Notes: generated by a model not told the origin, from the letters alone. Shown: positions 45,423 through 59,746, counted from the stretch's first letter. The stretch: DNA of 64,000 nt from Thermoprotei archaeon (GCA_003649205.1 QMRC01000006.1:1-64000); one strand, 5' to 3'. Made by a program: numbers and translations.

Positions 45423-46763
45423 GTGCACTTTATGAGATTTGGAGAGAAGCTAGGTGCGCTCTTAATGGTTGAAGCTGCATTTGCTGGAGCATACGTTAGC
45501 ATTACTCGTGGTTTCTTCTACTTGATGATGGTTGAACGTGGTTATAGTGTTAGGGATCTAGCTGTAGTTAGCCTAGTGGCTTCACTATCTATGGTGCTTG
45601 TGAGCTACCTACTGTACAGGAGACCTGAGCTACTTGAGAGAAGCGTCAAGGTTAAACTCCTCACCATGCACATACTCGAGAGAATTTTCTGGTGCATTCT
45701 ACCATTCATAGTGTTTAGATTTAGCTACATGTTTATCCTCCTAGCTTACTCACTAGCACAGGTCATTACTGTACCTGTGTGCGTGCTGCTGAATACTGTG
45801 TTACTCTCTCAGCTAAGTGAGGACGAGTTCAAGAGCGTTACTGGGTGGAGGAATTCCCTTGGCCTAATCTCGTCATTAAGTGCTCAGCTATTGGCGGTCC
45901 ACGTGTTAGCATCTATGAGGAGTCCAGTACGGTACTACTACCTTTACACAATTGCTCTACTCCTTGGCTTCCTCTCATGGATTCCACTTACTATTGCTAG
46001 AGTTAGGGACTATGTGAGGAAGGTTAGTGGTTACTCTAGTGAGGAGGTTGAGGTTATTGCTGGTACTACGTTCATATACTTGGTCCTTCTACTTGGATCA
46101 GCTAACATGCTCAGCATCCTCTGGGTACCATATCTGGTGAATGACCTAGGTGCACCGAGCTACCTAGTAGCTATCATGAACGCTGCTGGTACGATCTCTG
46201 GTTCCATATCGTCAGTTCTCTGGATTAGAGTTGTGTACAGGTACTATCTCTGTGGACTAGTTATTGACTCAGCTGTACCAACCTTAGTCATGACATTACC
46301 ACCAATATTCCATCCAGCTCTAGCTGGGCTCTCAGCTTTTGGCTTTACAGCAGGTAACTTCATTGGCTACTTCATGTACTCGAAGATAGCGGAGAAAAGC
46401 GACCCCATAAAGAACTCCACTAGGTTAGCTGCTGCTAATGCACTGGGTCTCCTAATATCATTGATACCAGTTGCTATCTTGAATTTGAGCGCTAGGGATG
46501 GACTAATTCTCTGTAGTTGCTTGAAGGTACTAGCTCTCGTAATTGCTCTGCTGAGTATTAAGGAAGTATCGCCACTTCCTGATCCACGTATCAGGACTTA
46601 TAGTAAGGTAATCTTCGAGACAGGTATGTTCTCATACAGGTTAACGCTCGAATTCACTACTCACTACGTACTATATACCTTGAAGATAGTAGCTGTTGTC
46701 CTTATAATGCTCTTCATGTACTTCATCTACAGGACAGTTACCATACTGATTAGTGGTGCGTAG
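45423..46763 (+). CDS. MFS-like multi-pass membrane protein
   Basis: About 12 hydrophobic segments. Confidence 0.7.
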   Translation: MHFMRFGEKLGALLMVEAAFAGAYVSITRGFFYLMMVERGYSVRDLAVVSLVASLSMVLVSYLLYRRPELLERSVKVKLLTMHILERIFWCILPFIVFRFSYMFILLAYSLAQVITVPVCVLLNTVLLSQLSEDEFKSVTGWRNSLGLISSLSAQLLAVHVLASMRSPVRYYYLYTIALLLGFLSWIPLTIARVRDYVRKVSGYSSEEVEVIAGTTFIYLVLLLGSANMLSILWVPYLVNDLGAPSYLVAIMNAAGTISGSISSVLWIRVVYRYYLCGLVIDSAVPTLVMTLPPIFHPALAGLSAFGFTAGNFIGYFMYSKIAEKSDPIKNSTRLAAANALGLLISLIPVAILNLSARDGLILCSCLKVLALVIALLSIKEVSPLPDPRIRTYSKVIFETGMFSYRLTLEFTTHYVLYTLKIVAVVLIMLFMYFIYRTVTILISGA

Positions 46764-47424
46764 TATGGAGTTATTGAACATGAGCAATGGCGAGGTAGCA
46801 TTTGAGAGAATAATTCAAGCATTTAAGTTGGCACTAAATGAATTGATAGCACTGGTACCTGTAGTACTAGCATCTGTCCTCATAGTTGCACTCATGCTAG
46901 TAATTGCTAAGTACGTAGGTTCTCTTGTCAAGAGGATACTGAAGGTAGTTGGTCTAGATAGGATACTTGAGAGGTACGTAGGTACACCACCGATATCTGT
47001 CGAGAACTTCATCGTCGTATTCATACAGCTGGGCTTCGTAATACTTGGCGTAACAATATCCGTGACAGTATTCGCACCTGAGTACCTAGCTACCTACAAC
47101 ATGTACCTATCCTATATACTGAGGTTGATGTCGGCTGTAGCACTCATAATAATAACGCTCTTCTGGATAGAGGTACTAGTGAATAAGATTCGTGGTGAGA
47201 GCAAGGTAAAGGCATTTGCCTCACTAATAGCCTTCCTCCTAATACTCACCTTCATAATCGACGTAACAGCACTATCTGAAAGCGTTAAGTCATCACTCGT
47301 ATTCGGAATATCCCTTGGACTTGGATTGACAATAGGAGTATTCTCCATATGGTACTTCATGCATGAATACCTTGAGCACTACATCAGCAGAAAGCATGGA
47401 GAGAAAGAGGTCAGACAAGGCTGA
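46753..47424 (+). CDS. Membrane protein with MscS-associated TM-helix-like region; 3' end overlaps attL
   Basis: Multiple TMs, KRILKVVGLD; its stop codon is the last 3 nt of the 17-bp repeat. Confidence 0.7.
   Translation: MVRSMELLNMSNGEVAFERIIQAFKLALNELIALVPVVLASVLIVALMLVIAKYVGSLVKRILKVVGLDRILERYVGTPPISVENFIVVFIQLGFVILGVTISVTVFAPEYLATYNMYLSYILRLMSAVALIIITLFWIEVLVNKIRGESKVKAFASLIAFLLILTFIIDVTALSESVKSSLVFGISLGLGLTIGVFSIWYFMHEYLEHYISRKHGEKEVRQG
47408..47424 (+). repeat. attL direct repeat AGGTCAGACAAGGCTGA
   Basis: Identical to 58195-58211; 10 nt upstream of the integrase ATG. Confidence 0.92.
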
Positions 47425-47434
47425 TTGAGTTCTC

Positions 47435-48598
47435 ATGGAAGAAATCACACCTGATAGCCCTATCTATCAGGTGAGAATAGGTCTCAATTCGATGGAGTTG
47501 CTGAAGCACTTTGAGAGTTGGTTAATTGCTCAGAACCTGTCCGTGGCTACGGTTAGGTCTCATGTTAGACAGGTTAGGTCTTTCCTCACGTGGTTTGGTA
47601 GGTCTATCGAGGATTTGAGTAGTTTCGATATTGCGTGTTACCTAGCTGAGTGCCGTAAGCGTGGTCTATCTGAGGCTAGTGTGAATCGCTATGCTTCTGC
47701 TCTCAAGAAATTCCTGAGGTTCCTAGCTAGTTACTTCAGAGCTAGGAGAAGGGTTGAGTTAGCTAATTACTTTGAGCAGGTGTACCGTGAGGTCAAGGTA
47801 CCTAAGTACGACCTAGTTGAGGTCAGCATTAAGCGACACATGGAGCCTGATACAGCGAGGAAAGTCATAGACTTAATTCATGACCCCTACTGGAAGTGCT
47901 TTTTCGCTGTGCTGTATGAGACAGGTCTGAGGTTGAGGGAGCTTAGACAGGTCAAGGTAAGTGATGTTCACGAGAACAAGCACGGGTTCGAGATAGTTGT
48001 CAGAGATAGCAAGACACCTGAGGGAGTTAGGAAAGTGTACGTGGTTGAGTACTATCAGCTACTGAGGTACTACCTAGAGCATGTACGTCCGAGAGATAGC
48101 GAGTGGTTGTTCCCTGCTAGGAGAGACCCAAGGCAACCAATCTCCGAGAAAGCAATCTACAGCTTTCTAAACCGCTTCAGAAAGCGGACAGGTATCGTGA
48201 TTAGTCCACACCGCTTTAGACACGCTAGAGCTACTGAGCTTTACCGCAAGGGAGTATCTGAGCAGTCGTTAATGAGGTTGTTTGGTTGGAGGACAAGGAC
48301 AATGATTGATGTCTACAGTAAGCTTTCACAGCGAGATGTGGAGTCTGAGCTACTGAGCAAGGTCTACGGGCTATCCCCTGTAGAGAGTGAGAGGTCTCAG
48401 ACTCGTAAGTGCCCGAGGTGTGGTGCTGAGGTAATACCCACAGCTAGGTACTGTCCATACTGTGGTCTAGCCCTAGATATTGCGTCAGTATTAGGCAAAG
48501 AGGAACAGGTACGGAAATACGCAGAGCTCATTGAAGCACTGCTGAGGTACCTAGAGGAACACCCAGAGTACCTGTCGAAACTATTCTCAAGGACTTAA
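47435..48598 (+). CDS. Tyrosine integrase with N-terminal SAM-like domain and C-terminal zinc ribbon
   Basis: ETGLR (R), DSKT (K), HRFRH, FGW, VYS (Y); CPRC/CPYC; not split by integration. Confidence 0.95.
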   Translation: MEEITPDSPIYQVRIGLNSMELLKHFESWLIAQNLSVATVRSHVRQVRSFLTWFGRSIEDLSSFDIACYLAECRKRGLSEASVNRYASALKKFLRFLASYFRARRRVELANYFEQVYREVKVPKYDLVEVSIKRHMEPDTARKVIDLIHDPYWKCFFAVLYETGLRLRELRQVKVSDVHENKHGFEIVVRDSKTPEGVRKVYVVEYYQLLRYYLEHVRPRDSEWLFPARRDPRQPISEKAIYSFLNRFRKRTGIVISPHRFRHARATELYRKGVSEQSLMRLFGWRTRTMIDVYSKLSQRDVESELLSKVYGLSPVESERSQTRKCPRCGAEVIPTARYCPYCGLALDIASVLGKEEQVRKYAELIEALLRYLEEHPEYLSKLFSRT

Positions 48599-48741
48599 AA
48601 GCGGACATGAAACACAGGCAGAGAACACCAAGACCCGCCCTATAGTCCAGAGGAAATGTTGCCTGAATTCAACAATAGTCTAATATGCGTATACGTGTGA
48701 GTGAACAGCGAGCGAGGTAATACACCACTTGAGGATGAATA

Positions 48742-48834
48742 GGGGCTCCTCGGGGGATGATGAAGGGCTTAGCGGAGCGACCCCGCAAGGGGGTATGGCT
48801 GGACCAGGCTAGCTGACCCCTACCCCCTCGCCCC
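48742..48834 (-). ncRNA. Provirus-encoded 93-nt structured RNA with a K-turn
   Basis: Very GC-rich; 5' GGGGC pairs 3' GCCCC; GGGGC-GA-GGGGG / CCCCC-GAG-GA-GCCCC fits the K-turn consensus; GAAACTTAAATA promoter ~25 nt upstream. Confidence 0.65.
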
Positions 48835-48870
48835 GTGATAATGGGTTATTATCACCAATATTTAAGTTTC
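48835..48870 (-). promoter_or_regulatory. TATA/BRE plus palindromic operator GTGATAAT-N5-ATTATCAC
   Basis: Perfect 8-bp inverted repeat 48835-48855 between TATA (48859-48865) and predicted TSS. Confidence 0.55.
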
Positions 48871-48942
48871 TATGCAATTACAGTGAAATTACCATGGTTA
48901 CTTTCTCGTGAGGGGGTTTAAGAACCCTTGATACGTCTTTGC

Positions 48943-49290
48943 TTAGCCTTTCTTTCTGATTAGTCCTCCTATTGCTCCTCCTATCATTGATAGGAATGCT
49001 GAGGCTAGCATCATGAATATTATTGCTAACCCTGCTAACCCACCTGCCCATGCTCCTAGGAATCCAGCTACTGAGAAGCCTAGTACTGTCAGCACTATTG
49101 CTGCTAGTATTCCTCCAATGATTCCACTGAGGAACCCTGCTGCTGCTCCTCTACCTGCTCCTCCTCCAGCTACTAGACCTGCTATGAAGCCTCCAAGTAC
49201 TGGTGCGAAGATGTGTAGTATGGGTGAGAGTACGGCTGTAGCTAACATACCTGCAAAGACACCAGCTATGAAACTCAGTACACGACCCAT
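48943..49290 (-). CDS. Gly-rich membrane protein (DUF5518-like)
   Basis: PVLGGFIAG, GAAAGFLSG, IGGAIGG. Confidence 0.75.
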   Translation of the reverse strand: MGRVLSFIAGVFAGMLATAVLSPILHIFAPVLGGFIAGLVAGGGAGRGAAAGFLSGIIGGILAAIVLTVLGFSVAGFLGAWAGGLAGLAIIFMMLASAFLSMIGGAIGGLIRKKG

Positions 49291-49560
49291 GTAGGGAAAA
49301 CCCCGAGGAAACCAGATACAGAGAGGACATAAAGCAGTTCAGAACATAGAGAGCAATGAACCTAGCAACCTCAGAGGACAGAAAACAAGAACGCTCCTCC
49401 GGTCGGTGATGAATACTTGTACTTTTCTCTCGGTGACTTTCCTCAAGGCACTAAATAAGAAATTGCTCTACTCTACAGTGGTATGGATTCTGAGGATTTT
49501 TGGATTGGTTTTCTCCTTGGTTACAGTACTGGTCTTATTCATGCGAAAAACTTAACAACT

Positions 49561-49944
49561 TCAGAACTTGTCTTCAGGCTCATTTCCTGTTCCTTCATGC
49601 TCAGTGAGTTGTTGGGTACTAGACTTAATGAGTTCTTCAGCTCTTTGGAGAAGTTCAGCGACTTCACGACCCTTCTCAGTGAGCTCAATGTACCTAAGAC
49701 CGTGCTTGGTATACGTCCTAACAAGACCGTACTGAAGACAGGTACTGAGGGCTCTGTAAGTACTGACAGGTGAGATACCGTATCTCTGAAGTTCTCTAAT
49801 GTGCATAGCTCTACCTGTTTTGTGAAGAATTAGCAGCAATTTAATTCCCGGTCTACCTAAGTCATCAGCTAGAGCTGACATTTTCCTCTGTCGTTTTCTG
49901 GTGATAAACCTAATAACGATATCTTCGAGCATTCGTAACCTCAT
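49561..49944 (-). CDS. Winged-HTH regulator (MarR/SSV1 F93-like); likely start ~49881
   Basis: STYRALSTCLQYGLV...IELTEKGREVAELL. Confidence 0.8.
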   Translation of the reverse strand: MRLRMLEDIVIRFITRKRQRKMSALADDLGRPGIKLLLILHKTGRAMHIRELQRYGISPVSTYRALSTCLQYGLVRTYTKHGLRYIELTEKGREVAELLQRAEELIKSSTQQLTEHEGTGNEPEDKF

Positions 49945-49975
49945 TCTCAGTCTATACCCGATTTAGAGGTATCAC

Positions 49976-50039
49976 GTAATAATATTACAACGCTATATCT
50001 CGAAACTGATAAATTGTTATAACGTTACAGAGTTGTAAC
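49976..50039. promoter_or_regulatory. Divergent control region with three palindromes
   Basis: GTAATAATATTAC (49976-88), GTTATAAC (50016-23), GTTACA-N4-TGTAAC (50024-39) between divergent wHTH and RHH genes. Confidence 0.55.
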
Positions 50040-50042
50040 AGG

Positions 50043-50240
50043 GTGAGAGAGGTGCCTAAGAGTAAGGTGCCTATGGTCTTGGTTACCTTCCATATCCCGA
50101 TACCACTCCTTAGAGAACTTGACAGGTTGGTGGAGGAGGGTAAGTTCCCGAGCAGGAGCGAGGCGATAAGGCACGCAATAATCCAACTCCTAGCTCGTGA
50201 GCGTCAAAGAACACAAATACACGAGGTGTTGGTAGCGTGA
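50043..50240 (+). CDS. Ribbon-helix-helix (CopG-like) regulator
   Basis: VTFHIP..LLRELDRLVEEGKFPSRSEAIRHAI. Confidence 0.9.
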   Translation: MREVPKSKVPMVLVTFHIPIPLLRELDRLVEEGKFPSRSEAIRHAIIQLLARERQRTQIHEVLVA

Positions 50241-50485
50241 CCATTGTCAACTATGTCGAGGTAATTAGGAACATCATACTCAATGCTTTGAAGGAGCATG
50301 GCTACATTAGTGACCTAGAGCTTGTTAGGGCTGTCAAAGAGGCTACGGGACTCAGCTACGTAGACTTTGCTCCCATTCTTGAGCAGGTACTGAGTGAGCT
50401 AATGAGGTCTGGCGCAATTAGACGTGTAATGTCAGCAAGCAACCCGAGAAAGGTCGAGCATGGGTGGGAGCTGTGTACACAATAA
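50237..50485 (+). CDS. Small wHTH-like proviral protein
   Basis: LEQVLSELMRSGAIRR; GTGA-coupled to the RHH gene. Confidence 0.6.
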   Translation: MTIVNYVEVIRNIILNALKEHGYISDLELVRAVKEATGLSYVDFAPILEQVLSELMRSGAIRRVMSASNPRKVEHGWELCTQ

Positions 50486-50829
50486 AGCCGAATGGATTCT
50501 ACCTCAGGTTGGTTTTGGATGCACTGAAGTACTGTGCTAGGACTGAAAGAGGCTCTATTGTGTCTATTTACCCAAAGAAAGTCGCTAAGTTAAATGGGTA
50601 CAGTGTTCGTGCATGTGGGAGGTATAGAGATGACAGTGAGGTAGAGAGGTCGCTATCCCCTGCCGAGCTATCTATCATTAGGTACTGGCTGGATTACCTC
50701 TGGGTCAATGGGCTGTGTAGCCGTGAGAAGACTAGTCGTGACAGGTGGAACTACGTATTCCCGAGGGAGAACTTGCCTAAGGCTATCAAGCTACTTGAGG
50801 AGGTGCTCAATGGTGAAGTACAAGATTGA
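50464..50829 (+). CDS. Hypothetical proviral protein
   Basis: 121 aa in coupled operon. Confidence 0.55.
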   Translation: MGAVYTIKPNGFYLRLVLDALKYCARTERGSIVSIYPKKVAKLNGYSVRACGRYRDDSEVERSLSPAELSIIRYWLDYLWVNGLCSREKTSRDRWNYVFPRENLPKAIKLLEEVLNGEVQD

Positions 50830-50950
50830 GGAGATAGTCAAGGAGTTGAAGGTTGCTCTCAGGGATAGAGAACTCAGAGAAGCATTGCTGAAGCACTTCT
50901 CCAACAACCCAAAGGCTCAAGCAATCATACTACTCCTGTCAGGTGAGTGA
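50810..50950 (+). CDS. 46-aa proviral protein (ATG at 50810)
   Basis: GAGGAGGTG RBS before ATG; MVKYKIEEIVKELK... Confidence 0.6.
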   Translation: MVKYKIEEIVKELKVALRDRELREALLKHFSNNPKAQAIILLLSGE

Positions 50951-51189
50951 GCATGATTGAGCTGAGTTTCAAGACGAAGCGGGACTTCGATAACTGGGTT
51001 AAGGCGCTGTATGACTTCGGTTCGAATCACTGTGTTGAGCCTGTCGTCATCAAGCTAGATGGTAATGACCTCTACGACAGGTACATGGTCTGCATTGTGT
51101 ACCATGCTTGGACTGAGGAAGGTGCTTACGCAGTGACCTGTCTAGCCCGCATAGTAGCGATAGTGTACAGGGAAGGTGAGCAGAAGTGA
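50947..51189 (+). CDS. Hypothetical proviral protein
   Basis: GTGA start/stop overlap, AGGTGA RBS. Confidence 0.55.
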   Translation: MSMIELSFKTKRDFDNWVKALYDFGSNHCVEPVVIKLDGNDLYDRYMVCIVYHAWTEEGAYAVTCLARIVAIVYREGEQK

Positions 51190-51368
51190 GTCGCTACCAC
51201 GGGCACAAGGTAACTATCACGATTATTGCGACAACAGGTTCTGGACTACCGACAGGTGAGCGAAAGAGCGATTTCATTAGATTCATGGTCGAGCAGGTAC
51301 TGGAACGTGAGCTTTCTAAGAGGCTCCGTGATTTCCGTGTCCTCAAAGTCATGGTGAAGGTGATGTAG
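51186..51368 (+). CDS. Hypothetical proviral protein
   Basis: GTGA overlap, AGGTGA RBS. Confidence 0.55.
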   Translation: MSRYHGHKVTITIIATTGSGLPTGERKSDFIRFMVEQVLERELSKRLRDFRVLKVMVKVM

Positions 51369-51447
51369 ATGGTTCCTGCTACTACTACCTATTCTATTTC
51401 TAGTAATTCGTTTAGACAAAATACGCGGGACATTAAACGCGGTTCAG

Positions 51448-51572
51448 ATTGGAACCAATGTTCCCTCTCAGAGGAATCATTGAAACCAATCATTGGAATC
51501 AATGTCAGTGGTATGATTGGAACCAATGATTGGAACCAATCATTCCACTCGCTTAGTCTCATTGGTTCCAAA
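51448..51572. repeat. Array of six quasi-palindromic ATTGGAACCAAT units (candidate origin or operator)
   Basis: Copies at 51448, 51479, 51492, 51516, 51529 and inverted at 51561. Confidence 0.8.
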
Positions 51573-51583
51573 AACGGAGAGAG

Positions 51584-51907
51584 GTGTTGAGTATCCCCCG
51601 AATAACTATCTACATCCATGAGAGCGATTGGGAAAAGCTGACGAAAATAGCTGAGCAGAGAGGACAATCAATGTACAGCATAGTGAAGCAAGTAGTACTT
51701 GAGTTCCTGAAGCTAAGTAACCCAATTGTTGCTCATGGTAAGCTTTCTAGGGATTTAGCTACCTGTCGGAGCATTATCAAGCGATTTGGTTGGTGTGCTC
51801 TCTGCATACATGCTGAGGTTGTTGGTGATAGGTTAGTCTGCAGAAAGACAGGCAAAGTCATAGAAAAACCCATATGGCAATGCCCACACCCCATACCCAA
51901 GGTGTAA
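51584..51907 (+). CDS. RHH protein with C-terminal Cys-rich (Zn) domain
   Basis: RITIYIHESDWEKL..IAEQRGQSMYSIVK; CALC...C...CP; GAGAGGTG RBS. Confidence 0.75.
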   Translation: MLSIPRITIYIHESDWEKLTKIAEQRGQSMYSIVKQVVLEFLKLSNPIVAHGKLSRDLATCRSIIKRFGWCALCIHAEVVGDRLVCRKTGKVIEKPIWQCPHPIPKV

Positions 51908-51983
51908 ATCATGCTTTTTACACAGCTGCAGCTGTGTAAATGATTTTTACTCACTGACAGGTGCGTAAATTTGGTGAGAATTC

Positions 51984-52352
51984 ATGTCCGAGATGGAGAA
52001 GTTAATTAGGAACCTGAACATACTGCGAAACTACTTCAGCAAGGTACCACCTGAAGTCATTGAGGCTCTCATGTACTTTGAGGATAGGTTCTTCACTGAG
52101 AAATACCATGTTGTTCGCTCTAAGACAGGTAGGGAGTATCGCTACAGGTACCTCTACATCAGGTTGAATGACTACAGGACACTAGGTTACTTCAGGATAA
52201 ATGATAGCAATGATGAATTGCTGCTACACGAAATTAGGCAGGTCAAGGCATTTTCACAAGCACTACTACAGTACATAGCAATGCTCAGACACAGCAAACT
52301 AGCAAACCTCACCAAAATTTACTCAAGGACCTTGAGTAAAAACAACCAATAA
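51984..52352 (+). CDS. Hypothetical proviral protein with a basic beta-hairpin
   Basis: HVVRSKTGREYRYRYLY; GGTGA RBS. Confidence 0.6.
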   Translation: MSEMEKLIRNLNILRNYFSKVPPEVIEALMYFEDRFFTEKYHVVRSKTGREYRYRYLYIRLNDYRTLGYFRINDSNDELLLHEIRQVKAFSQALLQYIAMLRHSKLANLTKIYSRTLSKNNQ

Positions 52353-52413
52353 CACATCAGCAATTGGGGAAATTGAATTGGGGTGATGCCCCCTGAACCT
52401 CAAGGTCTATTTC

Positions 52414-53400
52414 GTGAAGAAAACTAGGCAATACGAGGTCTATGAGGGCTCTAGGAGAATCCTCAGGACTAAGGTACATGCAAAAGCTCACGAGTACCTA
52501 TCGAAACAAATCAATTCAAGTTTTGAGTTCTACTTTGTTTGTTGCAATAGGGAGCACCTGTTAGCATGTTCACGTTTCTTTGAACTCACAGGTCGCAGGC
52601 TCAATGTGTTGATTAGTTACAACTTCATACGTGACAGGTACCTCACACAGGTGCTTCAGCAAGTTAGACCACACCTAAGCAAAGTCATGATTGATTCAGG
52701 TGCTTTCCATGTACTTATCCGCAAGGTACCCCTGGAAAAGTTCCAGAGCTACATAGGTGAGTACGTGAATTGGCTCAACAACCACACAGAGCTTTACGAC
52801 TACTGTGTCGCACCTGACGTACCCTGTGATGAACGACCCGCAGAAAAAATCCAGAAACTACCAAACAGGTACAAGATAGAGCTAACCATAGCTAACACAG
52901 TTCACTGGATAGATAGGTTGACAGACCCTCGCAAGGCTGTGGCTGTAGTTCAGGGTTATTTCGTGAATGAGTACCTGCTCTGTGCTGAGAAGCTGAAAGA
53001 ACTCGGGCTCACAACAGCAAAGACAGGTGTCGGCTCTTTATGTGTCAGGAAATACAGTAGACAACAAGCACGTGAAGTACCACAGATACTAGCTAGCATA
53101 AGACAGGTCTTACCGTCATGGGTGAAACTTCACGCATTCGGTCTTCAGCTAGATTTCTTACCGACCTGTCTCAAGTACCTACACAGCTCAGACAGTGCCT
53201 CATGGCAATTAAGTTACTCAAAGTTCAATAGGATACGAATAGCGAACCTGTCGACAGGTCAAACAGTTGAGCTTGATTTAGTTAGTCATGGCGGAGCGAG
53301 GAAAAAGAACCTAGACCAAGTCACGATATACACATACAACCTCTTAGCCTACTGGAATAGAGTTCAGCAACTAACGAGACAGGCAGCACAGACAAAATAA
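52414..53400 (+). CDS. dpdA: TGT-fold DpdA-like deazaguanine DNA transglycosylase
   Basis: IDSGAF, APDVP, VVQG, GVGS, LHAFG, SSDSASW in TGT order; no Zn-binding or PUA domain. Confidence 0.8.
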   Translation: MKKTRQYEVYEGSRRILRTKVHAKAHEYLSKQINSSFEFYFVCCNREHLLACSRFFELTGRRLNVLISYNFIRDRYLTQVLQQVRPHLSKVMIDSGAFHVLIRKVPLEKFQSYIGEYVNWLNNHTELYDYCVAPDVPCDERPAEKIQKLPNRYKIELTIANTVHWIDRLTDPRKAVAVVQGYFVNEYLLCAEKLKELGLTTAKTGVGSLCVRKYSRQQAREVPQILASIRQVLPSWVKLHAFGLQLDFLPTCLKYLHSSDSASWQLSYSKFNRIRIANLSTGQTVELDLVSHGGARKKNLDQVTIYTYNLLAYWNRVQQLTRQAAQTK

Positions 53401-53419
53401 AGTAAGTGTTGAAAACTGC

Positions 53420-54184
53420 TCAAGTCCCCATGTTCTCTATCTCATGTCCTGTAGGGTATAGGTTCAGTTTCTTTATGTACTTGTACACTGTTTGACGTGA
53501 AACACCGAGTGCTCTAGCTATATCACTTATACTGTAACCTTTCTTCAACATATCCTCAATAGTCTTCTCCCTATTAGCAGTCTGGATAGCTACCTGTAAG
53601 TCCATGAACACCTTCTCAACAAAGAGCCTCCTCATTTCCTGATACTTCACATAGATGTCGTGGTCTAGCTTAGGCACGAAGGTATCTACACCAATTTCCT
53701 TCACCACGAACTTACCCGTAGGAGTCCACGTAAACCTGTAGATGTGTGCCTCTCTCTCACCTTGCTTACTCTTCCTAATGTGTACATGTATCCAACACAT
53801 CTCACGTAGTGCTCTTAAGAGCAGGCGATAGGTAGGTACCGTGAATATGACAGCACCTGTCACAGTCCTAGCAACCTCAAGGAACTTTACAAATAGCTGA
53901 CGGTCTTCTTTAAGAAAGTCATATTTGCTTATCCACACACCAGCATCATCATAGCACAGACACTTAACACGCTTACGATACCTAAGACACTCCCTAATAA
54001 TTGGGAAAGACTGCTTAACATCGAAGAATACGTAGTTGAGAGCAGTCTCCCTACAATACAGCTCACTCAAGACCTTGATAGCGTAGGTAGTCTTACCAAC
54101 CCCTTGCTGACCCTGAATAACAATAACCTCAAATCCATTGTTCCTGAAAGCACGCTCAATTATCTTAGTTAGGACAAACGGCAT
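53420..54184 (-). CDS. P-loop ATPase with C-terminal HTH (fusellovirus B251-like)
   Basis: NNGF..IVIQGQQGVGKTTYA, YDDAGVW, IFTVP; SISDIARALGVSRQTVYKY. Confidence 0.8.
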   Translation of the reverse strand: MPFVLTKIIERAFRNNGFEVIVIQGQQGVGKTTYAIKVLSELYCRETALNYVFFDVKQSFPIIRECLRYRKRVKCLCYDDAGVWISKYDFLKEDRQLFVKFLEVARTVTGAVIFTVPTYRLLLRALREMCWIHVHIRKSKQGEREAHIYRFTWTPTGKFVVKEIGVDTFVPKLDHDIYVKYQEMRRLFVEKVFMDLQVAIQTANREKTIEDMLKKGYSISDIARALGVSRQTVYKYIKKLNLYPTGHEIENMGT

Positions 54185-54187
54185 ACC

Positions 54188-54490
54188 TCACTCCTCCTCA
54201 ATCTCCTCCTCACGACCAACAGGTATGAACCTCTTACGACCCATTACATGCGTTATAGTCCTGAAGAACTTAGCAAACGATAGCAGAGCTGAGTAACCAC
54301 GACCGCCCTCAGCTAACCTCAACTCAAGGTAAGGTATGATGAATGAGTCTCTCAAGTCCTGAAGGTTGTACCTGTCGCATATGAAGAGCAACGTAGCTAT
54401 CTTACGAGCCTCACCATACTGCAACCTAGTTAAGCGAAGTATGTTCCCCGAGGTAAGAGCCTCAATTAGTTCCTCTGACATGAGCCTCAC
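54188..54490 (-). CDS. Hypothetical proviral protein
   Basis: ~100 aa in coupled operon with ATPase; GAGGTGA RBS. Confidence 0.6.
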   Translation of the reverse strand: MRLMSEELIEALTSGNILRLTRLQYGEARKIATLLFICDRYNLQDLRDSFIIPYLELRLAEGGRGYSALLSFAKFFRTITHVMGRKRFIPVGREEEIEEE

Positions 54491-54491
54491 C

Positions 54492-54947
54492 TCACAGGTG
54501 AATGATACCGAACTTCACGAGCATGAACATGATGTACGCACCTATGATTAACCCACAAATCAGAGCAATGATGACAGGAGTAGCCCTAACAGGTACCTTC
54601 TCCGTTAGCAGAGCCCTCAGTACCTGTCCCTTGATAATCTGCGATATAGTGTCACTATCAATGTAGGGGTCTTGATATTGACCACAGAAGTACACTATCT
54701 TTCTGACAGGTGCCCACACCTTCACGTCTCTAAACACCCTAACCCTACCCCCAGCAAGCACCAGCTTCCTCTCCGGATTGAGCAATTTAGCAGGCGTAAT
54801 CTCGACATGCTTATCGTTCACGATAATAGCTATGTGCTTTGACCTGAAGATACGTCCTTCAGGTCTCGCTAGGAACATCATGATGAATGTGACAGGTATA
54901 GCTACGCAGTATATTGCGACTAGGATAGGGCTCAACATAGGGCTCAC
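54492..54947 (-). CDS. Proviral membrane protein (N- and C-terminal TM)
   Basis: Two hydrophobic segments flanking a soluble beta region. Confidence 0.65.
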   Translation of the reverse strand: MSPMLSPILVAIYCVAIPVTFIMMFLARPEGRIFRSKHIAIIVNDKHVEITPAKLLNPERKLVLAGGRVRVFRDVKVWAPVRKIVYFCGQYQDPYIDSDTISQIIKGQVLRALLTEKVPVRATPVIIALICGLIIGAYIMFMLVKFGIIHL

Positions 54948-55469
54948 CTACAGAGTCTTCTCAGCTTCAGCAATGAGCTTGTTCAGGACCTGCTCAACCC
55001 TCTCAATTCGCTTAGCTAACTCACTGAGCCTATCCTCACTATGATTTGAGCCTAGCTTACTCACGTCGATAGCGTCTAGGAATATCGAGAGCGGAACAGC
55101 AATAGCGTACTCAAACCTCTCAACCTTACCACTCTGCTCGACAGGTATCGTAACTTGCTGAGCCTCCCTCTCCCTCACCAAAATCAGAACACGGTCAGGA
55201 TTCCTAACCGCAGAGACAGGTAGCTTAGACAGGTACGGTCTCCTACCTGTCTCACTTTCGGACGTGTACGGTCTACCTCTCTGAAAGTGAAGTACTAAGC
55301 ACAGAGCACCGAGACTAGCTAGAGCAATGAAACCAACCCACTTCAGCGTAAAGACCGCTCCAGAGGATATCTTAGCAGTCAGTGGTGACAGGTATGGGTC
55401 ATACCAAATCAAGTACATGACTGCACCTGTGAGCAGTGCTGTGCTCAGGTAAAGGAAACGAGTACTCAC
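54948..55469 (-). CDS. Proviral membrane protein with C-terminal coiled coil
   Basis: Two N-terminal TMs; LSELAKRIERVEQVL. Confidence 0.65.
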   Translation of the reverse strand: MSTRFLYLSTALLTGAVMYLIWYDPYLSPLTAKISSGAVFTLKWVGFIALASLGALCLVLHFQRGRPYTSESETGRRPYLSKLPVSAVRNPDRVLILVREREAQQVTIPVEQSGKVERFEYAIAVPLSIFLDAIDVSKLGSNHSEDRLSELAKRIERVEQVLNKLIAEAEKTL

Positions 55470-55594
55470 TTACAACCCACCTCACTTATGTAAACTTTTT
55501 CACAAAAACCATAAGGTCAACTTGCGAGATATCCTGAATAATCACTGAACACGGAGCAAACCTGAGACAGGTCGAAAAGTAGGAGGTGAAGTAG

Positions 55595-55954
55595 GTGGAC
55601 ATAGACCTAGGGAACATCCTGAGAGCTGTCCTGTTTGTAGCCCTAATACCCACGCTATTCGGAGCTATAGCTGGATTCGTTGACCCTTCACTACAACCAA
55701 TGATACAGCCCCTACTCAGCCTAGTACCAATGCTCATAATCCTCAACCTAATCAAAGACCTGTTCTCAGAAGCTGGAGCAAAGGGATTCGTCAAGATATT
55801 CGATATCCTACTGCTCGTAATGATGTTACCTGTCCTAATCAACATGTTCGGAGCAGCCACAGGACAAAACGAAGCACTAGCACAAGTCTCAGGACTCCTA
55901 CAGCAACTCCTACCAATCCTACTATTCATCAAGCTCATCGAAGAGATGGTTTAG
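55595..55954 (+). CDS. Putative major capsid protein with two tandem fusellovirus VP1/VP3-like hydrophobic hairpins
   Basis: Two ~55-aa repeats, each helix(LIP/LP)-linker-helix(LLSLVPMLII / LLQQLLPILLF); strong GGAGGTGA RBS. Confidence 0.65.
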   Translation: MDIDLGNILRAVLFVALIPTLFGAIAGFVDPSLQPMIQPLLSLVPMLIILNLIKDLFSEAGAKGFVKIFDILLLVMMLPVLINMFGAATGQNEALAQVSGLLQQLLPILLFIKLIEEMV

Positions 55955-55975
55955 TTCCTTCGAGGTGATTAAGCT

Positions 55976-57730
55976 ATGAAACCCAAGCCCCTTTTTGCAA
56001 TCTTAACAGTACTCACTCTAGTGCTCATAGTGGCGGTTGTTAATGCTGGTGAGTACACGCTATACGATGTACTTCAGTACGCTCATGAGGTACATGTCTT
56101 CGGAAAGACATACAACACAGCAAGTTATGGCACCACAACTTACTCTGGGACATGGAATCTAACTGATGTTGTGTCGGGGAGGAAAGTTACATTTGGCTAC
56201 AGGCAATACCTACAAGACCCAGATAGCTCCGACACAATCGTTATTGTGTTTCAGAAGAATACAGCTATCGAGGTCGGTACTGGTAGCGGGAAGTGTGTCT
56301 ACGGTAAACCTGTCGTAATTACGTATGATACTGAAACAGGAAGGAGGACTATGTACTACATTGATGGCGGTGAACTGAAGAAAGTAGGTGAATTCACTGG
56401 TGGTACCTACGTCTACTGGAACGGTACAAAGTTATGTCAAGCACTACGTTTCAAGGACTGGTTAGATTTCCACAAGTTCTTTAACAACACATGCATGTTA
56501 ATACTCCCAGACATCACGACATACGACTACAGGATAATTGATGGGTCTTCCGAGCTATTAAAGGATAAGTGTGGTGGAAATGGTTTCCACACCCTCATTA
56601 TCTTCGGTGGTGAGTACCTAAACAAATCGATAATTGTTGAAGTTGCTGGAGCCTACGGAATCAAGAACATAACGCTCACTACAGAACTCAACACAGTCTA
56701 CACGATTGACCCAAAGCACTTGAAGTTAGCTGTGTTCACAGGTAACCTAACGGAGACGCTATCGAGGGCGAGCCAGAGCACAGAGGAAAGTACACAGGAA
56801 AGTACAACTAACACGACAAACGAGACCTCAACACCAACCACAGCACCAGAGACGAAGGTGTACAAGGTCACGATACATGTCTACGATGTGGATACCAATG
56901 AGGAAATCACATCAGCAATGGTTAAGGCGGGTTGGTTCACGAAGACAGGTTCACCTGTTACCTTTGAGTTCAAGTGGAAGGAACCACAGTGGTTACCTAT
57001 CTCAGCTAGTGCTACAGGTTACAAGTCCTTCAGCACAACTATCTGGGTCGATACCAACATGACGCTGTGGGTAGGGCTAGTCAAGGAAACCTCGAACAGC
57101 ACCGAGCAATACAGTAAATTACTGAGGCTCGGTGTCTCAATTGCGGGTGTTGGTTCAACTCCATATTGGGCTCAGGAAAACAAGACATTCACAGAGTGGG
57201 CTAATGAGGTTGAGCAGTTACTATCCTCATCACAGGCTCCTGAGGTTAAGTATGAGACTACGTGGTATGGTTTGAAGATAGTCGCTGTGAAGGTACCTTC
57301 AGGTAGACCAGCATACGGAGTAGCGACTATTGTCGCTGTTAAGAAAGGATTTCTCGGTACCCTAACATGGGAAGAAGAACTCGGTACTGTGCAAATAGTG
57401 AATGGTACGGGTTATTTCCATGTTGACTACGAGACAATCAAGAACAAGCTACAACTCAAAGAGTGGGGAGGGGAGTACTTCTACGGTTTCAAGATTGTAT
57501 GGAAGGTCGGTGACCTAGACCCAGAGGTCGAGGTTGTACCTGTCAAGAATACATGGACGCCTGTCTACATTCAGGTGAATGAGCAGACAGGAACCTACTC
57601 AGCAACAACACTACCACAGACAGCATTAACGAATGTCGGAACATCACTAACACAGATGCTCATAACCCTACTACCACTGTTCATCATATTCGCACTCATT
57701 GGAGCTATTACAGGTCGTAGAAGGCGATAG
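55976..57730 (+). CDS. Virion spike/adhesin-like glycoprotein
   Basis: Signal peptide, beta-rich domains, S/T linker, 12 N-X-S/T sequons, C-terminal TM plus RRRR. Confidence 0.7.
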   Translation: MKPKPLFAILTVLTLVLIVAVVNAGEYTLYDVLQYAHEVHVFGKTYNTASYGTTTYSGTWNLTDVVSGRKVTFGYRQYLQDPDSSDTIVIVFQKNTAIEVGTGSGKCVYGKPVVITYDTETGRRTMYYIDGGELKKVGEFTGGTYVYWNGTKLCQALRFKDWLDFHKFFNNTCMLILPDITTYDYRIIDGSSELLKDKCGGNGFHTLIIFGGEYLNKSIIVEVAGAYGIKNITLTTELNTVYTIDPKHLKLAVFTGNLTETLSRASQSTEESTQESTTNTTNETSTPTTAPETKVYKVTIHVYDVDTNEEITSAMVKAGWFTKTGSPVTFEFKWKEPQWLPISASATGYKSFSTTIWVDTNMTLWVGLVKETSNSTEQYSKLLRLGVSIAGVGSTPYWAQENKTFTEWANEVEQLLSSSQAPEVKYETTWYGLKIVAVKVPSGRPAYGVATIVAVKKGFLGTLTWEEELGTVQIVNGTGYFHVDYETIKNKLQLKEWGGEYFYGFKIVWKVGDLDPEVEVVPVKNTWTPVYIQVNEQTGTYSATTLPQTALTNVGTSLTQMLITLLPLFIIFALIGAITGRRRR

Positions 57731-57733
57731 AGC

Positions 57734-58036
57734 ATGACTAACCGCTACGTCTACCTTGGAAAGAAAGTGAAGGACATAGGCAAGAAAGGACTAGACCGAC
57801 CAAGCGAGTACCTAGCAATAGCGAGAGCTATAGCACAAGACTACAAGGCTGGTAGGATAAGTAAAAAGACTGCTCACGGACGCTTTTTACTACTTTACAG
57901 GCTCGTGGATAAGAATAGCAAGCTGAAGGTACCTAAGTCAGTTAAGGAACGTCTCAAACGCAAGATTAAGGAAATCTGGATGAAGACCATTGGAGGTGGG
58001 AAGGTGGCTCGAAAGAGGAAAAGAAAGAAAAGGTAG
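57734..58036 (+). CDS. Highly basic protein, putative virion nucleoprotein (VP2 analogue)
   Basis: K/R-rich, ends RKRKRKKR; in the structural operon. Confidence 0.65.
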   Translation: MTNRYVYLGKKVKDIGKKGLDRPSEYLAIARAIAQDYKAGRISKKTAHGRFLLLYRLVDKNSKLKVPKSVKERLKRKIKEIWMKTIGGGKVARKRKRKKR

Positions 58037-58194
58037 GCTCAAGTCACATCACCTGTATGTCGCTCTAACTACCTAATTTCTTGAGCTTGCTCTAGTCCTC
58101 AAGAATTCTTTACACATGTCTCATGTCCTGCGACCTGTCACCTAGACCTGAACTAGCTCAAGACAGAAGGTGGGTGACTTCTCTCAACTTATTT

Positions 58195-58211
58195 AGGTCA
58201 GACAAGGCTGA
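58195..58211 (+). repeat. attR direct repeat AGGTCAGACAAGGCTGA
   Basis: Identical to 47408-47424. Confidence 0.92.
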
Positions 58212-58246
58212 ATTCTTCACGGATCTGCCTCGCCTGGGCTCATCAT
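58198..58246 (-). ncRNA. Box C/D sRNA predicted to target 16S rRNA; integration target of the provirus
   Basis: ATGATGA, guide GCCCAGGCGAGG, CAGA, tcc, GTGAAGA, guide ATTCAGCCTTGT, CTGA; guides complementary to conserved archaeal 16S CGCCUGGG and GCAAGGCUGAA. Confidence 0.88.
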
Positions 58247-58290
58247 AAAGCAGCCAATTACCTACTCTCGAGACCCTCTAATAAAGATCA

Positions 58291-59049
58291 CTAATCAGCA
58301 ATCACATACCTAACCTCACCAGTGAAGCACCACTCACTCTCATCACTACGTTTGAGATCCACATCTACACACTTCTGCTGAAGATACAGTATTAGTTCTC
58401 GACTCGGGATTGCCTCACTAGGTAGTGAATCAAGAACACGTCTATACTGTACAGCTATGATTCCATCGAAGTACTTACTTAGCTCCTCAACTGACTCAAC
58501 AACCTTACTCTCTGGAATTAACTCAATACCGAAGAGGATGTAAGCAATGAAGCTAACCTCATCACCATAAACTTCACGACATTTCTCCCTAAGAGCATTC
58601 AACCTCACAATCTCACTCTGAGGAATACCCTTACACAACACAGCATTTCTCAGGTACTCATCCCAAACCTCAATACCAACCCTAATAACGAGCCTACTAG
58701 GTTTAAGCAGCTCAAGCACCTGTCTCACAGAGTCAAAACTTAGGTACTCAGGTCTAGACTCAATATCCACAATTCTACCACAGGTAAATCTAGAGAGCTT
58801 GAGCACGGTATCCAGAGGTAGCTCAAAGAATGAACCACCATTAAATACAGTAATTCTCTCAATACTAAACCTCAGGGTAGCATCTTCCAGAAGCGACAAT
58901 ATCTTGTCATTTGTCTGAATTACATCGGATAGTGAGTTACCTGCCTCAAGGAAGAAGGGACAGAAGACACATCTACCCCAACGACATCTAAATCCCTTGA
59001 GTATCACGATAGCTCTCTTCCTAGATCTCTCAATCACAACACCTAGCAC
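58291..59049 (-). CDS. Radical SAM protein, RaSEA/TIGR01210-like (archaeosine pathway), compact
   Basis: CRWGRCVFC, FNGGSFF, ESRPEY, GIE, LCKG. Confidence 0.7.
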   Translation of the reverse strand: MLGVVIERSRKRAIVILKGFRCRWGRCVFCPFFLEAGNSLSDVIQTNDKILSLLEDATLRFSIERITVFNGGSFFELPLDTVLKLSRFTCGRIVDIESRPEYLSFDSVRQVLELLKPSRLVIRVGIEVWDEYLRNAVLCKGIPQSEIVRLNALREKCREVYGDEVSFIAYILFGIELIPESKVVESVEELSKYFDGIIAVQYRRVLDSLPSEAIPSRELILYLQQKCVDVDLKRSDESEWCFTGEVRYVIAD

Positions 59050-59746
59050 TGAGAATCTCCCTCAAACCACTAATTAACTTACTCAAACTAGTTGGAGTTA
59101 TGAGTATGAGATCTGGATCATCGTAGTAACCACCTAGAGATACCTCATCAAGCTCATGAGGAGGTACCTCATTAACTCTCGCAGCTAAGTTCTTAACCTC
59201 AATACCTAGCATGGAACAAGCACGCTCTAGAGCAGCATAGCTATCTGAATCCCACCTTAGATACGACACAAAGCACTCATAATAACTCCTAAATCTACTC
59301 AGGAACAATCTCAATCTCTCACAGGTAACCTCCCTATAGAGTACCTTCACTTCACTAGTTTCATACTTAGGATTCCAGTCATACGCACAATAGGGGTAGT
59401 ACTCTTCAAGCTCTCTCGGTACGATACCGGCATTCGTTATAATGACTTGATGAATATCCTCGTAGTACCTACCTAACGACTTCAAAGCCCTAATTATGAA
59501 GTAGTGTATGTAGGATTGAGAGTACGGCTTACCGTAAGCACATGGTAGGAAGAGACAGACTCTATACCTCTTCCTTGGCTTCCACTCAGTTAGTAATCTC
59601 TTAAAACCCTCTTCAAAGAATGGGTGCTTAAGGTACCTAAGACCTACACCTCTGAGGAATTCCCTACCATCACCAGACCAGATAAGTTCGTGACCATCCC
59701 AAATAACGTACAAGCTAGATCCCTCAAGAAGTTCTCCACAAACCAA
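59030..59746 (-). CDS. Stand-alone ArcS core-like (DUF5591) protein
   Basis: LFLPCAYGKPYSQSYIH, GIVPRELE..YP..YD; no TGT-like or PUA domain. Confidence 0.75.
   Translation of the reverse strand: MVCGELLEGSSLYVIWDGHELIWSGDGREFLRGVGLRYLKHPFFEEGFKRLLTEWKPRKRYRVCLFLPCAYGKPYSQSYIHYFIIRALKSLGRYYEDIHQVIITNAGIVPRELEEYYPYCAYDWNPKYETSEVKVLYREVTCERLRLFLSRFRSYYECFVSYLRWDSDSYAALERACSMLGIEVKNLAARVNEVPPHELDEVSLGGYYDDPDLILITPTSLSKLISGLREILSARCCD

Follow-up and report, generated by a model that had tools for sequence, protein, structure and literature searches.

An integrated 10.8-kb element of a Thermoproteales archaeon as a candidate provirus of an undescribed membrane-containing lineage

What kind of mobile DNA combines an intact tyrosine integrase, an ATPase of the fusellovirus B251 type and a compact set of small membrane and basic proteins? 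This question is raised by an element that lies in a 64,000-nucleotide stretch of a Thermoprotei archaeon genome (GCA_003649205.1 QMRC01000006.1:1-64000), the whole of which is referred to here as the window. A previous reading of the sequence, made without database searches (the sequence-only reading), had described the locus as a spindle-virus-like provirus, possibly of a new lineage, in a thermoproteotan host. The host is indeed an uncultured Thermoproteales archaeon, as is its closest relative. Here, we show that the locus is a discrete mobile element, and we propose, with a probability of about 0.6, that it is the provirus of an undescribed lineage of small, non-lytic, membrane-containing archaeal double-stranded DNA viruses. 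By its sequence relationships, this lineage would be tied to fuselloviruses through its ATPase and to thalassapleoviruses through its integrase and gene layout; its particles may be spindle-shaped or pleomorphic.

The limits of the element are given by a 17-bp exact direct repeat, AGGTCAGACAAGGCTGA, whose copies are spaced by 10,787 bp; the integrase gene starts 10 bp downstream of the left copy. This repeat is beyond chance, since it has just two copies across the 2.07-Mb, 31-contig assembly and since a control with 189 random pairs of 400-bp window stretches gave common words of 13 nt at most. Two empty sites were found. In the sole other genome of the genus (G001, 71% complete), homologues of the host neighbours, with 93% (left) and 88% (right) amino-acid identity, lie 88 bp apart and enclose a single copy of the core, the flanks of which match the DNA left of the left attachment core (attL) and right of the right one (attR). 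In a metagenome run from a different study (X2), one contig with a depth of 36 joins position 47407 to position 58195, so that exactly 10,787 bases are skipped and 17 letters are common to both sides. These two independent empty sites demonstrate site-specific integration. The element is thus delimited precisely: it is integrated at the 17-bp core and extends from 47408 to 58211. The span of 47435-58036 first proposed for it was slightly too narrow, while the size proposed for the circular form, 10,787 bp, is the exact repeat distance. Direct att repeats, an integrase of its own and an empty site in a relative, all of which are expected of an integrated element, were found together. Because the element brings its own copy of the core, the two host genes that end in it, a protein gene and, on the other strand, a candidate small RNA gene, both stay whole; the former encodes an MscS-like membrane protein of 223 amino acids (aa). 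No tRNA gene was found in the window with ARAGORN.

The X2 run, an independent vent metagenome, also contains low-depth pieces over 47.5-53.5 kb with 85-95% likeness to the left half of the element. Their depth is about 1-17, whereas the host flanks reach 50-70; in one contig, 51470 is joined to 54219, and almost nothing covers 53.5-58.0 kb. These pieces may come from a related element with another right half.

The element encodes 19 open reading frames (ORFs), all of them intact and packed tightly into four blocks (Table 1), and all the ORFs that the sequence-only reading had listed were recovered where it had placed them. Relatives were found for seven of the 19: the integrase, the ATPase, a DpdA-like protein, two ribbon-helix-helix (RHH) proteins, a winged helix-turn-helix (wHTH) protein and a DUF5518 protein.

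Table 1. Features of the integrated element and of its attachment sites, in window coordinates. TM, transmembrane segment; HTH, helix-turn-helix; TGT, tRNA-guanine transglycosylase; sRNA, small RNA; pI, isoelectric point; values such as 3.7e-10 are E-values.
Feature	Coordinates	Strand	Remarks
attL core	47408-47424		17-bp repeat copy; last 17 nt, including the TGA stop, of the host 223-aa membrane protein gene (46753-47424)
Tyrosine integrase, 387 aa	47435-48598	+	XerA-like core, N-terminal SAM-like domain, C-terminal CxxC...CxxC zinc ribbon, helical tail; intact
Gly-rich membrane protein, DUF5518, 115 aa	48943-49290	-	PF17647 3.7e-10; 3 hydrophobic segments
wHTH regulator, 127 aa	49561-49944	-	Divergent from RHH gene; phrog_12817 1.5e-6; weak Pfam HTH matches
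RHH (CopG-like) regulator, 65 aa	50043-50240	+	Opens rightward operon; PF01402 4.1e-9; phrog_4738 2e-5
Five small overlapping ORFs (82, 121, 80 or shorter, 80, 60 aa)	50237-51368	+	4-22 nt start/stop overlaps; no family, matches marginal at best
About six copies of palindrome ATTGGAACCAAT and variants	51447-51577		In 215-bp non-coding gap; candidate operator/origin
Second RHH-domain protein, 107 aa	51584-51907	+	Cys-rich C-terminal half; PF01402 7.5e-4, 19.8 bits vs cutoff 20.5
ORF, 122 aa	51984-52352	+	No relatives found (Pfam, PHROGs)
DpdA-like/TGT-fold transglycosylase (distant), 328 aa	52414-53400	+	
AAA+ ATPase, fusellovirus B251 ('DnaA-like') type, 254 aa	53420-54184	-	C-terminal HTH_7
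ORF with acidic tail, 100 aa	54188-54490	-	Directly upstream of ATPase; no relatives found
Membrane protein, 151 aa	54492-54947	-	2 TM
Membrane protein, 173 aa	54948-55469	-	At least 1 TM
Acidic four-helix integral membrane protein, 119 aa	55595-55954	+	Two helical hairpins; candidate major virion/membrane protein
Type-I membrane protein, 584 aa	55976-57730	+	Orphan; candidate spike
Basic protein, 100 aa	57734-58036	+	pI 11; candidate DNA-binding protein
attR core	58195-58211		Second copy of 17-bp repeat
Candidate C/D box sRNA, host side	58197-58249	-	Rfam sR5, full model 1-53, 20.7 bits vs gathering 40, E 0.21-0.31

The ATPase matched the PHROGs family phrog_5484, annotated as 'DnaA-like replication initiation protein' (E-value 5e-41), as well as HTH_7 (4e-10). 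The sequence-only reading had listed an ATPase-HTH with two membrane proteins; these two and a 100-aa ORF precede the B251-type ATPase. It shares 35% identity with its counterpart in Sulfolobales Mexican fusellovirus 1 (SMF1; E 5e-38) and 33% with that of Sulfolobus spindle-shaped virus 1 (SSV1); the NTPases of Geoglobus acetivorans pleomorphic virus 1 (GacPV1) and ThalV2 are more distant (26-28%, E 1e-13 to 2e-17). In a tblastn search of a phage collection, 71 of the 72 records matched were archaeal viruses, comprising fuselloviruses, Aeropyrum spindle-shaped virus 1, one bicaudavirus and five Archaeoglobi pleomorphic viruses; the exception was a short, HTH-only match in a Vibrio phage. A quick maximum-likelihood tree of 45 sequences places the ATPase on a long branch at the base of the fusellovirus-type clade (Shimodaira-Hasegawa-like approximate likelihood-ratio test, SH-aLRT, 95), a placement made unsure by long branches. 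There, it stands outside a 30-row clade that contains SSV1 and SMF1 (SH-aLRT 89) and adjoins a 10.8-kb metagenome contig (L033), the thalassapleovirus NTPases forming a separate clade.

Other searches with the ATPase returned little. No relative was found in a scan of IMG/VR, a word-indexed search of 5.8 billion proteins (E <= 1e-10) returned the query alone, and the ATPase used by itself as a query had no match among genome contigs; a three-sequence ATPase alignment retrieved one Metallosphaera provirus from the same contigs. At 47 metagenome loci with B251-type ATPases, the matches beyond the ATPase were two marginal and short ones, to a zinc-ribbon stretch (E 0.008) and to a wHTH (E 0.002). 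With these loci and the reference viruses taken together, the element shares the ATPase, or the ATPase and the integrase, plus weak RHH/wHTH regulator matches, and nothing else. In related genomes, the loci with B251-type ATPase or DpdA-like matches have only RHH or DpdA fragments in common with it. Within the same genome, a contig of 2,991 bp (C29) carries a second, very distant B251-type ATPase (L006 925-1980; phrog_5484 1.3e-25), 24% identical to that of the element, and the 65-aa RHH protein has a counterpart with 63% identity on another small contig (C28). The G+C content of these two contigs is higher (0.46-0.47).

The second protein that connects the element to known viruses is its integrase, in which Pfam detected PF00589 (3.4e-24), a SAM-like N-domain and Zn_Ribbon_1 (1e-7, residues 325-344). 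Its match to the NCBIfam XerA model (7e-33) is far below the equivalog cutoff. It aligns with the GacPV1 integrase from residue 25 to residue 385, ribbon included, with 26% identity (E 2e-28), and blastp gave a comparable full-length match to ThalV2, compared with an E-value of 0.17 at best for SSV1 D-335. The sequence-only reading was right in that the integrase is intact and has a zinc ribbon; the att core lies upstream of its start and not, as in the SSV type, within the gene. The ribbon cannot be held as a peculiarity of the element, given the GacPV1 alignment and the occurrence of relatives (E <= 1e-25) in 19 genomes, the present one counted, out of 120 from the host's class. Among the neighbourhoods of 14 related integrase matches, solely an RHH gene is common with the element besides the integrase. 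We also considered and rejected an identity with the host XerA, of which the host has its own, more distant copy (contig C9).

A decayed copy of the integrase is present elsewhere in the genome (contig C2, 53505-54756). It is 70-89% identical, has three stop codons and an internal deletion of about 120 codons, and is still followed by around 240 bp that are 80% identical to the downstream spacer, with host-looking genes on either side. This copy is the relic of an earlier, related insertion.

On one strand, the 119-aa protein is followed by the 584-aa protein; on the other, the 173-, 151- and 100-aa proteins are followed by the ATPase. This order thus corresponds to the layout of small archaeal viruses that contain a membrane, in spite of the unlike sequences. 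The 119-aa protein has a pI of 4.4 and four hydrophobic segments, which an AlphaFold2 model computed without an alignment (predicted local distance difference test score, pLDDT, 74) folds into helices at residues 5-29, 31-59, 63-89 and 92-118. In the 584-aa protein, a hydrophobic segment at the N-terminus and a C-terminal transmembrane segment followed by RRRR are accompanied by 12 N-x-S/T sequons and a linker rich in Ser and Thr. The sequence-only reading had seen here a structural operon made of a hydrophobic major capsid protein (MCP), a glycosylated spike and a basic protein. The hydrophobic, sequon-rich and basic features are all present, and it is from these features that we infer the labels 'MCP', 'spike' and 'glycosylated'.

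These proteins are orphans. The 119-, 584- and 100-aa proteins of this operon, the three proteins encoded ahead of the ATPase (173, 151 and 100 aa), as well as six small ORFs, had no credible match in Pfam, PHROGs or NCBIfam, and the orphan ORFs have nothing in common with the 47 metagenome loci or the reference viruses. For the 584-aa protein, both an exhaustive phmmer search of 1.84 billion representatives and the word-indexed search of 5.8 billion proteins returned the query alone; for the 119-aa protein, the latter scored nothing, the query itself included. Neither protein has a relative in the IMG/VR scans. The ESM Atlas gave no usable match for the 119-aa protein, and for the 584-aa protein a feature score of 0.77 and TM-scores of at most 0.29, both below any bar.

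Several observations weigh against a provirus. No virion protein was identified by homology. Compared with five VP4-like fusogens, the 584-aa protein gave an hhalign probability of 0.3% and BLASTP E-values above 8, and the 119-aa protein reached 0.1% with five VP3-like proteins. With four SSV VP1/VP3 sequences, the 119-aa protein reached 10.7% (E 0.003), residues 3-53 being colinear with the hairpin; with a profile of 15 VP1/VP3 sequences, it scored 21.2; the top scores in two controls, 201 small membrane ORFs from the host and 100 shuffles, were 20.1 and 19.8. This top but just marginal rank may hint at a likeness to VP1/VP3; the 119-aa protein had no VP1 match by PHROGs or tblastn. The proposed fusellovirus-type capsid protein thus has a weak profile signal in its favour. 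In Foldseek searches with the 119-aa model, the lowest E-values, 0.89 (BFVD) and 3.4 (PDB), stayed above the threshold of 0.001, and the AlphaFold model of the 584-aa protein is unusable (pLDDT 35). In the assembled contigs of the likely source run, the depth is the same over the element (18.5-20.4 in most bins) as over its flanks (18.5-20.2), and no contig with a circular junction was present, contigs being prone to drop rare forms; the depth excess and junction sequences that had been suggested as checks were thus not seen. No RNA run was listed as containing the element. The same holds for CRISPR spacers: none of the 186 spacers from the three arrays of this genome matches the element, and among the two candidates scored per genome in 120 genomes of the class there was no spacer-like match, only pieces of integrase or RHH genes. 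Finally, an autonomous virus cannot be deduced from the ATPase alone, because the satellite pSSVx also carries B251 and A154 (PMC9608457).

Could the element then be non-viral, namely a cryptic integrated plasmid whose membrane and surface proteins are an envelope-altering cargo and whose ATPase-HTH serves only in replication or partition? This would account for the lack of a structural protein with a viral homologue and for the absence of depth excess, circular junction and spacer match, and it would suit an integrase type that is common in the class and whose 14 neighbourhoods add just an RHH gene. We nonetheless find it unlikely. No conjugation, pilin, partition or plasmid-replicase family was matched by the ORFs of the element in Pfam, PHROGs or NCBIfam, and the 119-aa and 584-aa proteins matched no pilin or type IV secretion system component, the matches that had been set beforehand as the sign of such an element. 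In addition, the ATPase family occurs, in the phage collection, in archaeal viruses, and a compact operon of small membrane, glycoprotein-like and basic proteins next to a membrane-protein/ATPase block is the layout of a small archaeal virus. This operon, with all its frames intact, also speaks against a satellite or defective provirus that, like pSSVx, would keep the ATPase block for packaging and receive its shell from a helper virus. The small genome, the second, distant B251-type ATPase of contig C29 and the co-occurrence of other mobile elements, deduced from matches of the genome's own spacers to five other contigs, are compatible with this scenario, as is the gene content of pSSVx mentioned above. 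However, hhalign detected no A154 homologue. pSSVx also carries a pRN-type prim-pol plasmid replicase, and no prim-pol plasmid replicase was matched in the element (Pfam, PHROGs, NCBIfam). We regard a satellite as rather improbable. An ordinary, highly diverged member of Fuselloviridae or of Thalassapleoviridae/Pleolipoviridae would explain at once the position of the ATPase within the fusellovirus-type clade, the Geoglobus thalassapleovirus type of the integrase, the similar gene layout and the weak VP1-like signal of the 119-aa protein. This is very unlikely, since B251 alone was found of the nine absolute-core fusellovirus genes given in PMC9608457, the integrase is neither of the SSV type nor split, and profile comparison detected no VP4-like fusogen or VP3-like protein; the 47 metagenome loci and the reference viruses do not bridge the gap either, as what they share is the ATPase, with or without the integrase, and weak regulator matches. 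A provirus of an undescribed lineage thus remains our preferred reading. That this lineage is a new one at the family level, as previously suggested, is plausible: the genes of the element place it in neither family, an argument that proceeds from missing homology.

The three CRISPR arrays of the genome lie at 269.6-284.1 kb of contig C1, 116.6-121.1 kb of contig C4 and 39.7-43.5 kb of contig C11. Ten of their spacers match other contigs of the assembly at 88-100% identity (three on C8, four on C17 and one each on C20, C26 and C27), and these five contigs probably carry other mobile elements or viruses.

The divergent wHTH/RHH gene pair and the coupled operon of small ORFs, in which neighbouring frames overlap by 4-22 nt, were confirmed. 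So was the lack of polymerase, Rep or primase: no such family was matched in Pfam, PHROGs or NCBIfam, the nearest being a weak DnaB_2 match (E 0.008) of the 121-aa ORF. The DpdA-like ORF scored 27.0 bits with PF23859, which is the cutoff, and 4e-11 with phrog_1279; with NCBIfam DpdA, it gave 9.6e-8 and 31 bits, against a cutoff of 200. Its best viral match is a gene of a Methanofastidiosa head-tailed virus (30.5% identity, E 5e-15), and no sequence match was found in PDB.

How could such an element live? Its entry through site-specific recombination at the 17-bp core is shown. From homology, integration and excision would be catalysed by the element's own XerA-like zinc-ribbon recombinase, and the divergent wHTH/RHH pair would set the lysogeny switch. 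The DpdA-like enzyme may swap guanine in the element DNA for a 7-deazaguanine derived from host preQ0, which would shield it against restriction. As has been proposed for fuselloviruses, the B251-type ATPase-HTH could act in replication initiation, in the loading of the genome into particles, or in both. As the element has no replicase, its genome would be copied by the host replisome, the palindrome cluster at 51447-51577 being the best candidate for an origin or operator. Judging from their features, the 119-aa, 584-aa and basic 100-aa proteins may form the particle, and the two membrane proteins and the 100-aa protein before the ATPase may assist its assembly.

The element is also marked by a repeated heptamer. 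GACAGGT/ACCTGTC occurs 38 times in its 10.8 kb, where 1.9 copies are expected (363 in the 2.07-Mb genome), an enrichment of about 20-fold, and elsewhere in the genome the count per 5-kb stretch never exceeds four. Both strands and all frames contain copies, as does non-coding DNA, by which a codon or Shine-Dalgarno artefact was ruled out. Two of them form a perfect inverted pair at 53246/53253, and three are grouped at 55215-55251, within 40 bp. Eight reference viruses and the host flanks showed no enrichment of this order. Our guess is that the heptamer is bound by the ATPase-HTH or by the basic protein, or else is a target of DpdA. It is tempting to go further and to see in the element the founder of a new temperate, membrane-containing virus family that links the fusellovirus and pleolipovirus-like worlds, with GACAGGT as a 'self' mark for packaging or a 7-deazaguanine site; we consider this speculation decidedly unlikely. 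If it were true, selective packaging would rely on recognition of the heptamer by the ATPase-HTH or the basic protein, or the DpdA-like enzyme would modify it. In any case, a heptamer enriched 20-fold together with a DpdA-like gene makes this small archaeal element a concrete system in which the marking of DNA by sequence or by base modification can be tested.

The integration site itself may be of a particular kind. No Rfam family reached its gathering score. Nonetheless, an sR5-like match lies on the host side of attR, between the host membrane-protein gene and a RaSEA-like gene, and the same match recurs at the empty site of G001 (L008 1460-1512; 18.6 bits); the C, D', C' and D boxes are conserved between the two genomes. 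The 3' end of this candidate C/D box sRNA (last guide and D box) falls within the att core, on the strand opposite to the membrane-protein gene. The integration target may therefore be an sRNA gene rather than a protein gene, which would widen the known range of archaeal att sites. The GC-rich spacer at 48700-48850 folds no better than its shuffles (z -0.6 and -0.5).

The two host genes immediately to the right of attR (58291-59746, minus strand) show weak matches to the archaeosine enzyme RaSEA (2.7e-11) and to part of ArcS (1.1e-14). They adjoin an element whose DpdA-like gene would draw on the same pool of preQ0. The RaSEA-like gene of G001, however, adjoins the empty site in the absence of the element, as would suit a chance adjacency.

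If the element is a provirus, the supergroup of fusellovirus- and pleolipovirus-like viruses would be extended to a new host order. In the literature, we found no such virus for Thermoproteales, and the 72 records of the phage collection matched by the ATPase all have other hosts. As its structural proteins are orphans, they could hold a new fold of envelope or fusion protein.

The closest relative of the ATPase, with 38% identity, is encoded by the metagenome contig L033, which forms the other deep branch beside that of the element in the tree. L033 has a similar size (10,806 bp) and also encodes type-I glycoprotein-like proteins with a C-terminal transmembrane segment and a basic tail (three in L033), and in both, membrane proteins and then an acidic-tailed protein (115 aa in L033) directly precede the ATPase. 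Besides the ATPase, no protein is similar between the two; unlike the element, L033 is AT-rich and has no integrase in its ORF list. L033 is itself virus-like, with several multi-spanning membrane proteins and a Lys-rich protein of 311 aa.

With Fuselloviridae, the element shares B251, an absolute-core gene according to PMC9608457, and a small circular-size genome, the smallest SSV record matched being 11.4 kb. Like fuselloviruses, it would be temperate, with a tyrosine integrase and no replicase, and it has both RHH and wHTH regulators. A basic protein closes its structural operon, in the position of VP2 in SSV1. In fuselloviruses, A82, A92 and B277, all with transmembrane segments, and A154 stand ahead of B251, much as membrane proteins and a small soluble protein precede the ATPase here. 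The sequences behind this order differ. No relative of VP4, A82, A92, A154, C166 or B115 was found with PHROGs (E <= 0.1) or with blastp and phmmer against the six-frame ORFs of SSV1 and SMF1; A154 and B277 were covered by hhalign in addition, C166, B115, A82 and A92 by the three former methods. Compared with the A154, B277 and thalassapleovirus gp06 families, the ORFs upstream of the ATPase gave hhalign probabilities of at most 20.8%, over the transmembrane segment only. The XerA-like integrase stays intact, whereas integration splits those of SSVs (as annotated in the SSV1 record), four helices make up the candidate capsid protein instead of the two of the fusellovirus VP1/VP3 sequences examined, the ATPase carries an HTH_7 domain, and the host belongs to Thermoproteales and not to Sulfolobales. 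By its gene content, the element does not fit Fuselloviridae.

Nor does its gene content fit Thalassapleoviridae/Pleolipoviridae. Its ATPase block is inverted relative to the structural genes, it has a basic protein and no HUH Rep, it is not integrated into a tRNA gene, and its host is in Thermoproteota, where those of thalassapleoviruses are in Archaeoglobi; the VP4-like fusogen, the hallmark of pleolipoviruses (PMC10919331), and the VP3-like protein are undetectable in it by profile comparison. In thalassapleoviruses, the integrase is followed by a small ORF, a VP3-like protein (about 130 aa, four hydrophobic segments), a VP4-like protein (about 505 aa, a hydrophobic segment at either end; PMC10919331 and records), a membrane protein of about 470 aa with five transmembrane segments, a protein of about 110 aa and the NTPase (PMC10919331). 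Much of this plan is recognisable here. As in AvPV1, GacPV1 and ThalV2 (PMC10919331), the integrase, of the same zinc-ribbon type, stands at the edge of the element, short att repeats bound it (the thalassapleovirus proviruses measure 13-18 kb), and the NTPase of the morphogenetic block is related. A small protein with four transmembrane segments directly precedes a large one, although the 119-aa protein and the VP3-like proteins are alike only in size and in these four segments. The large protein (584 aa here, about 500 aa there) has in both cases an N-terminal hydrophobic segment, a C-terminal transmembrane segment, a basic tail and many sequons. Finally, the succession of one or more transmembrane proteins, a soluble protein of about 100-150 aa and the ATPase is common to the element, thalassapleoviruses and fuselloviruses. 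The association of a fusellovirus-type ATPase with an integrase and a layout of the thalassapleovirus type is of relevance to the relationship between the morphogenetic blocks of these families.

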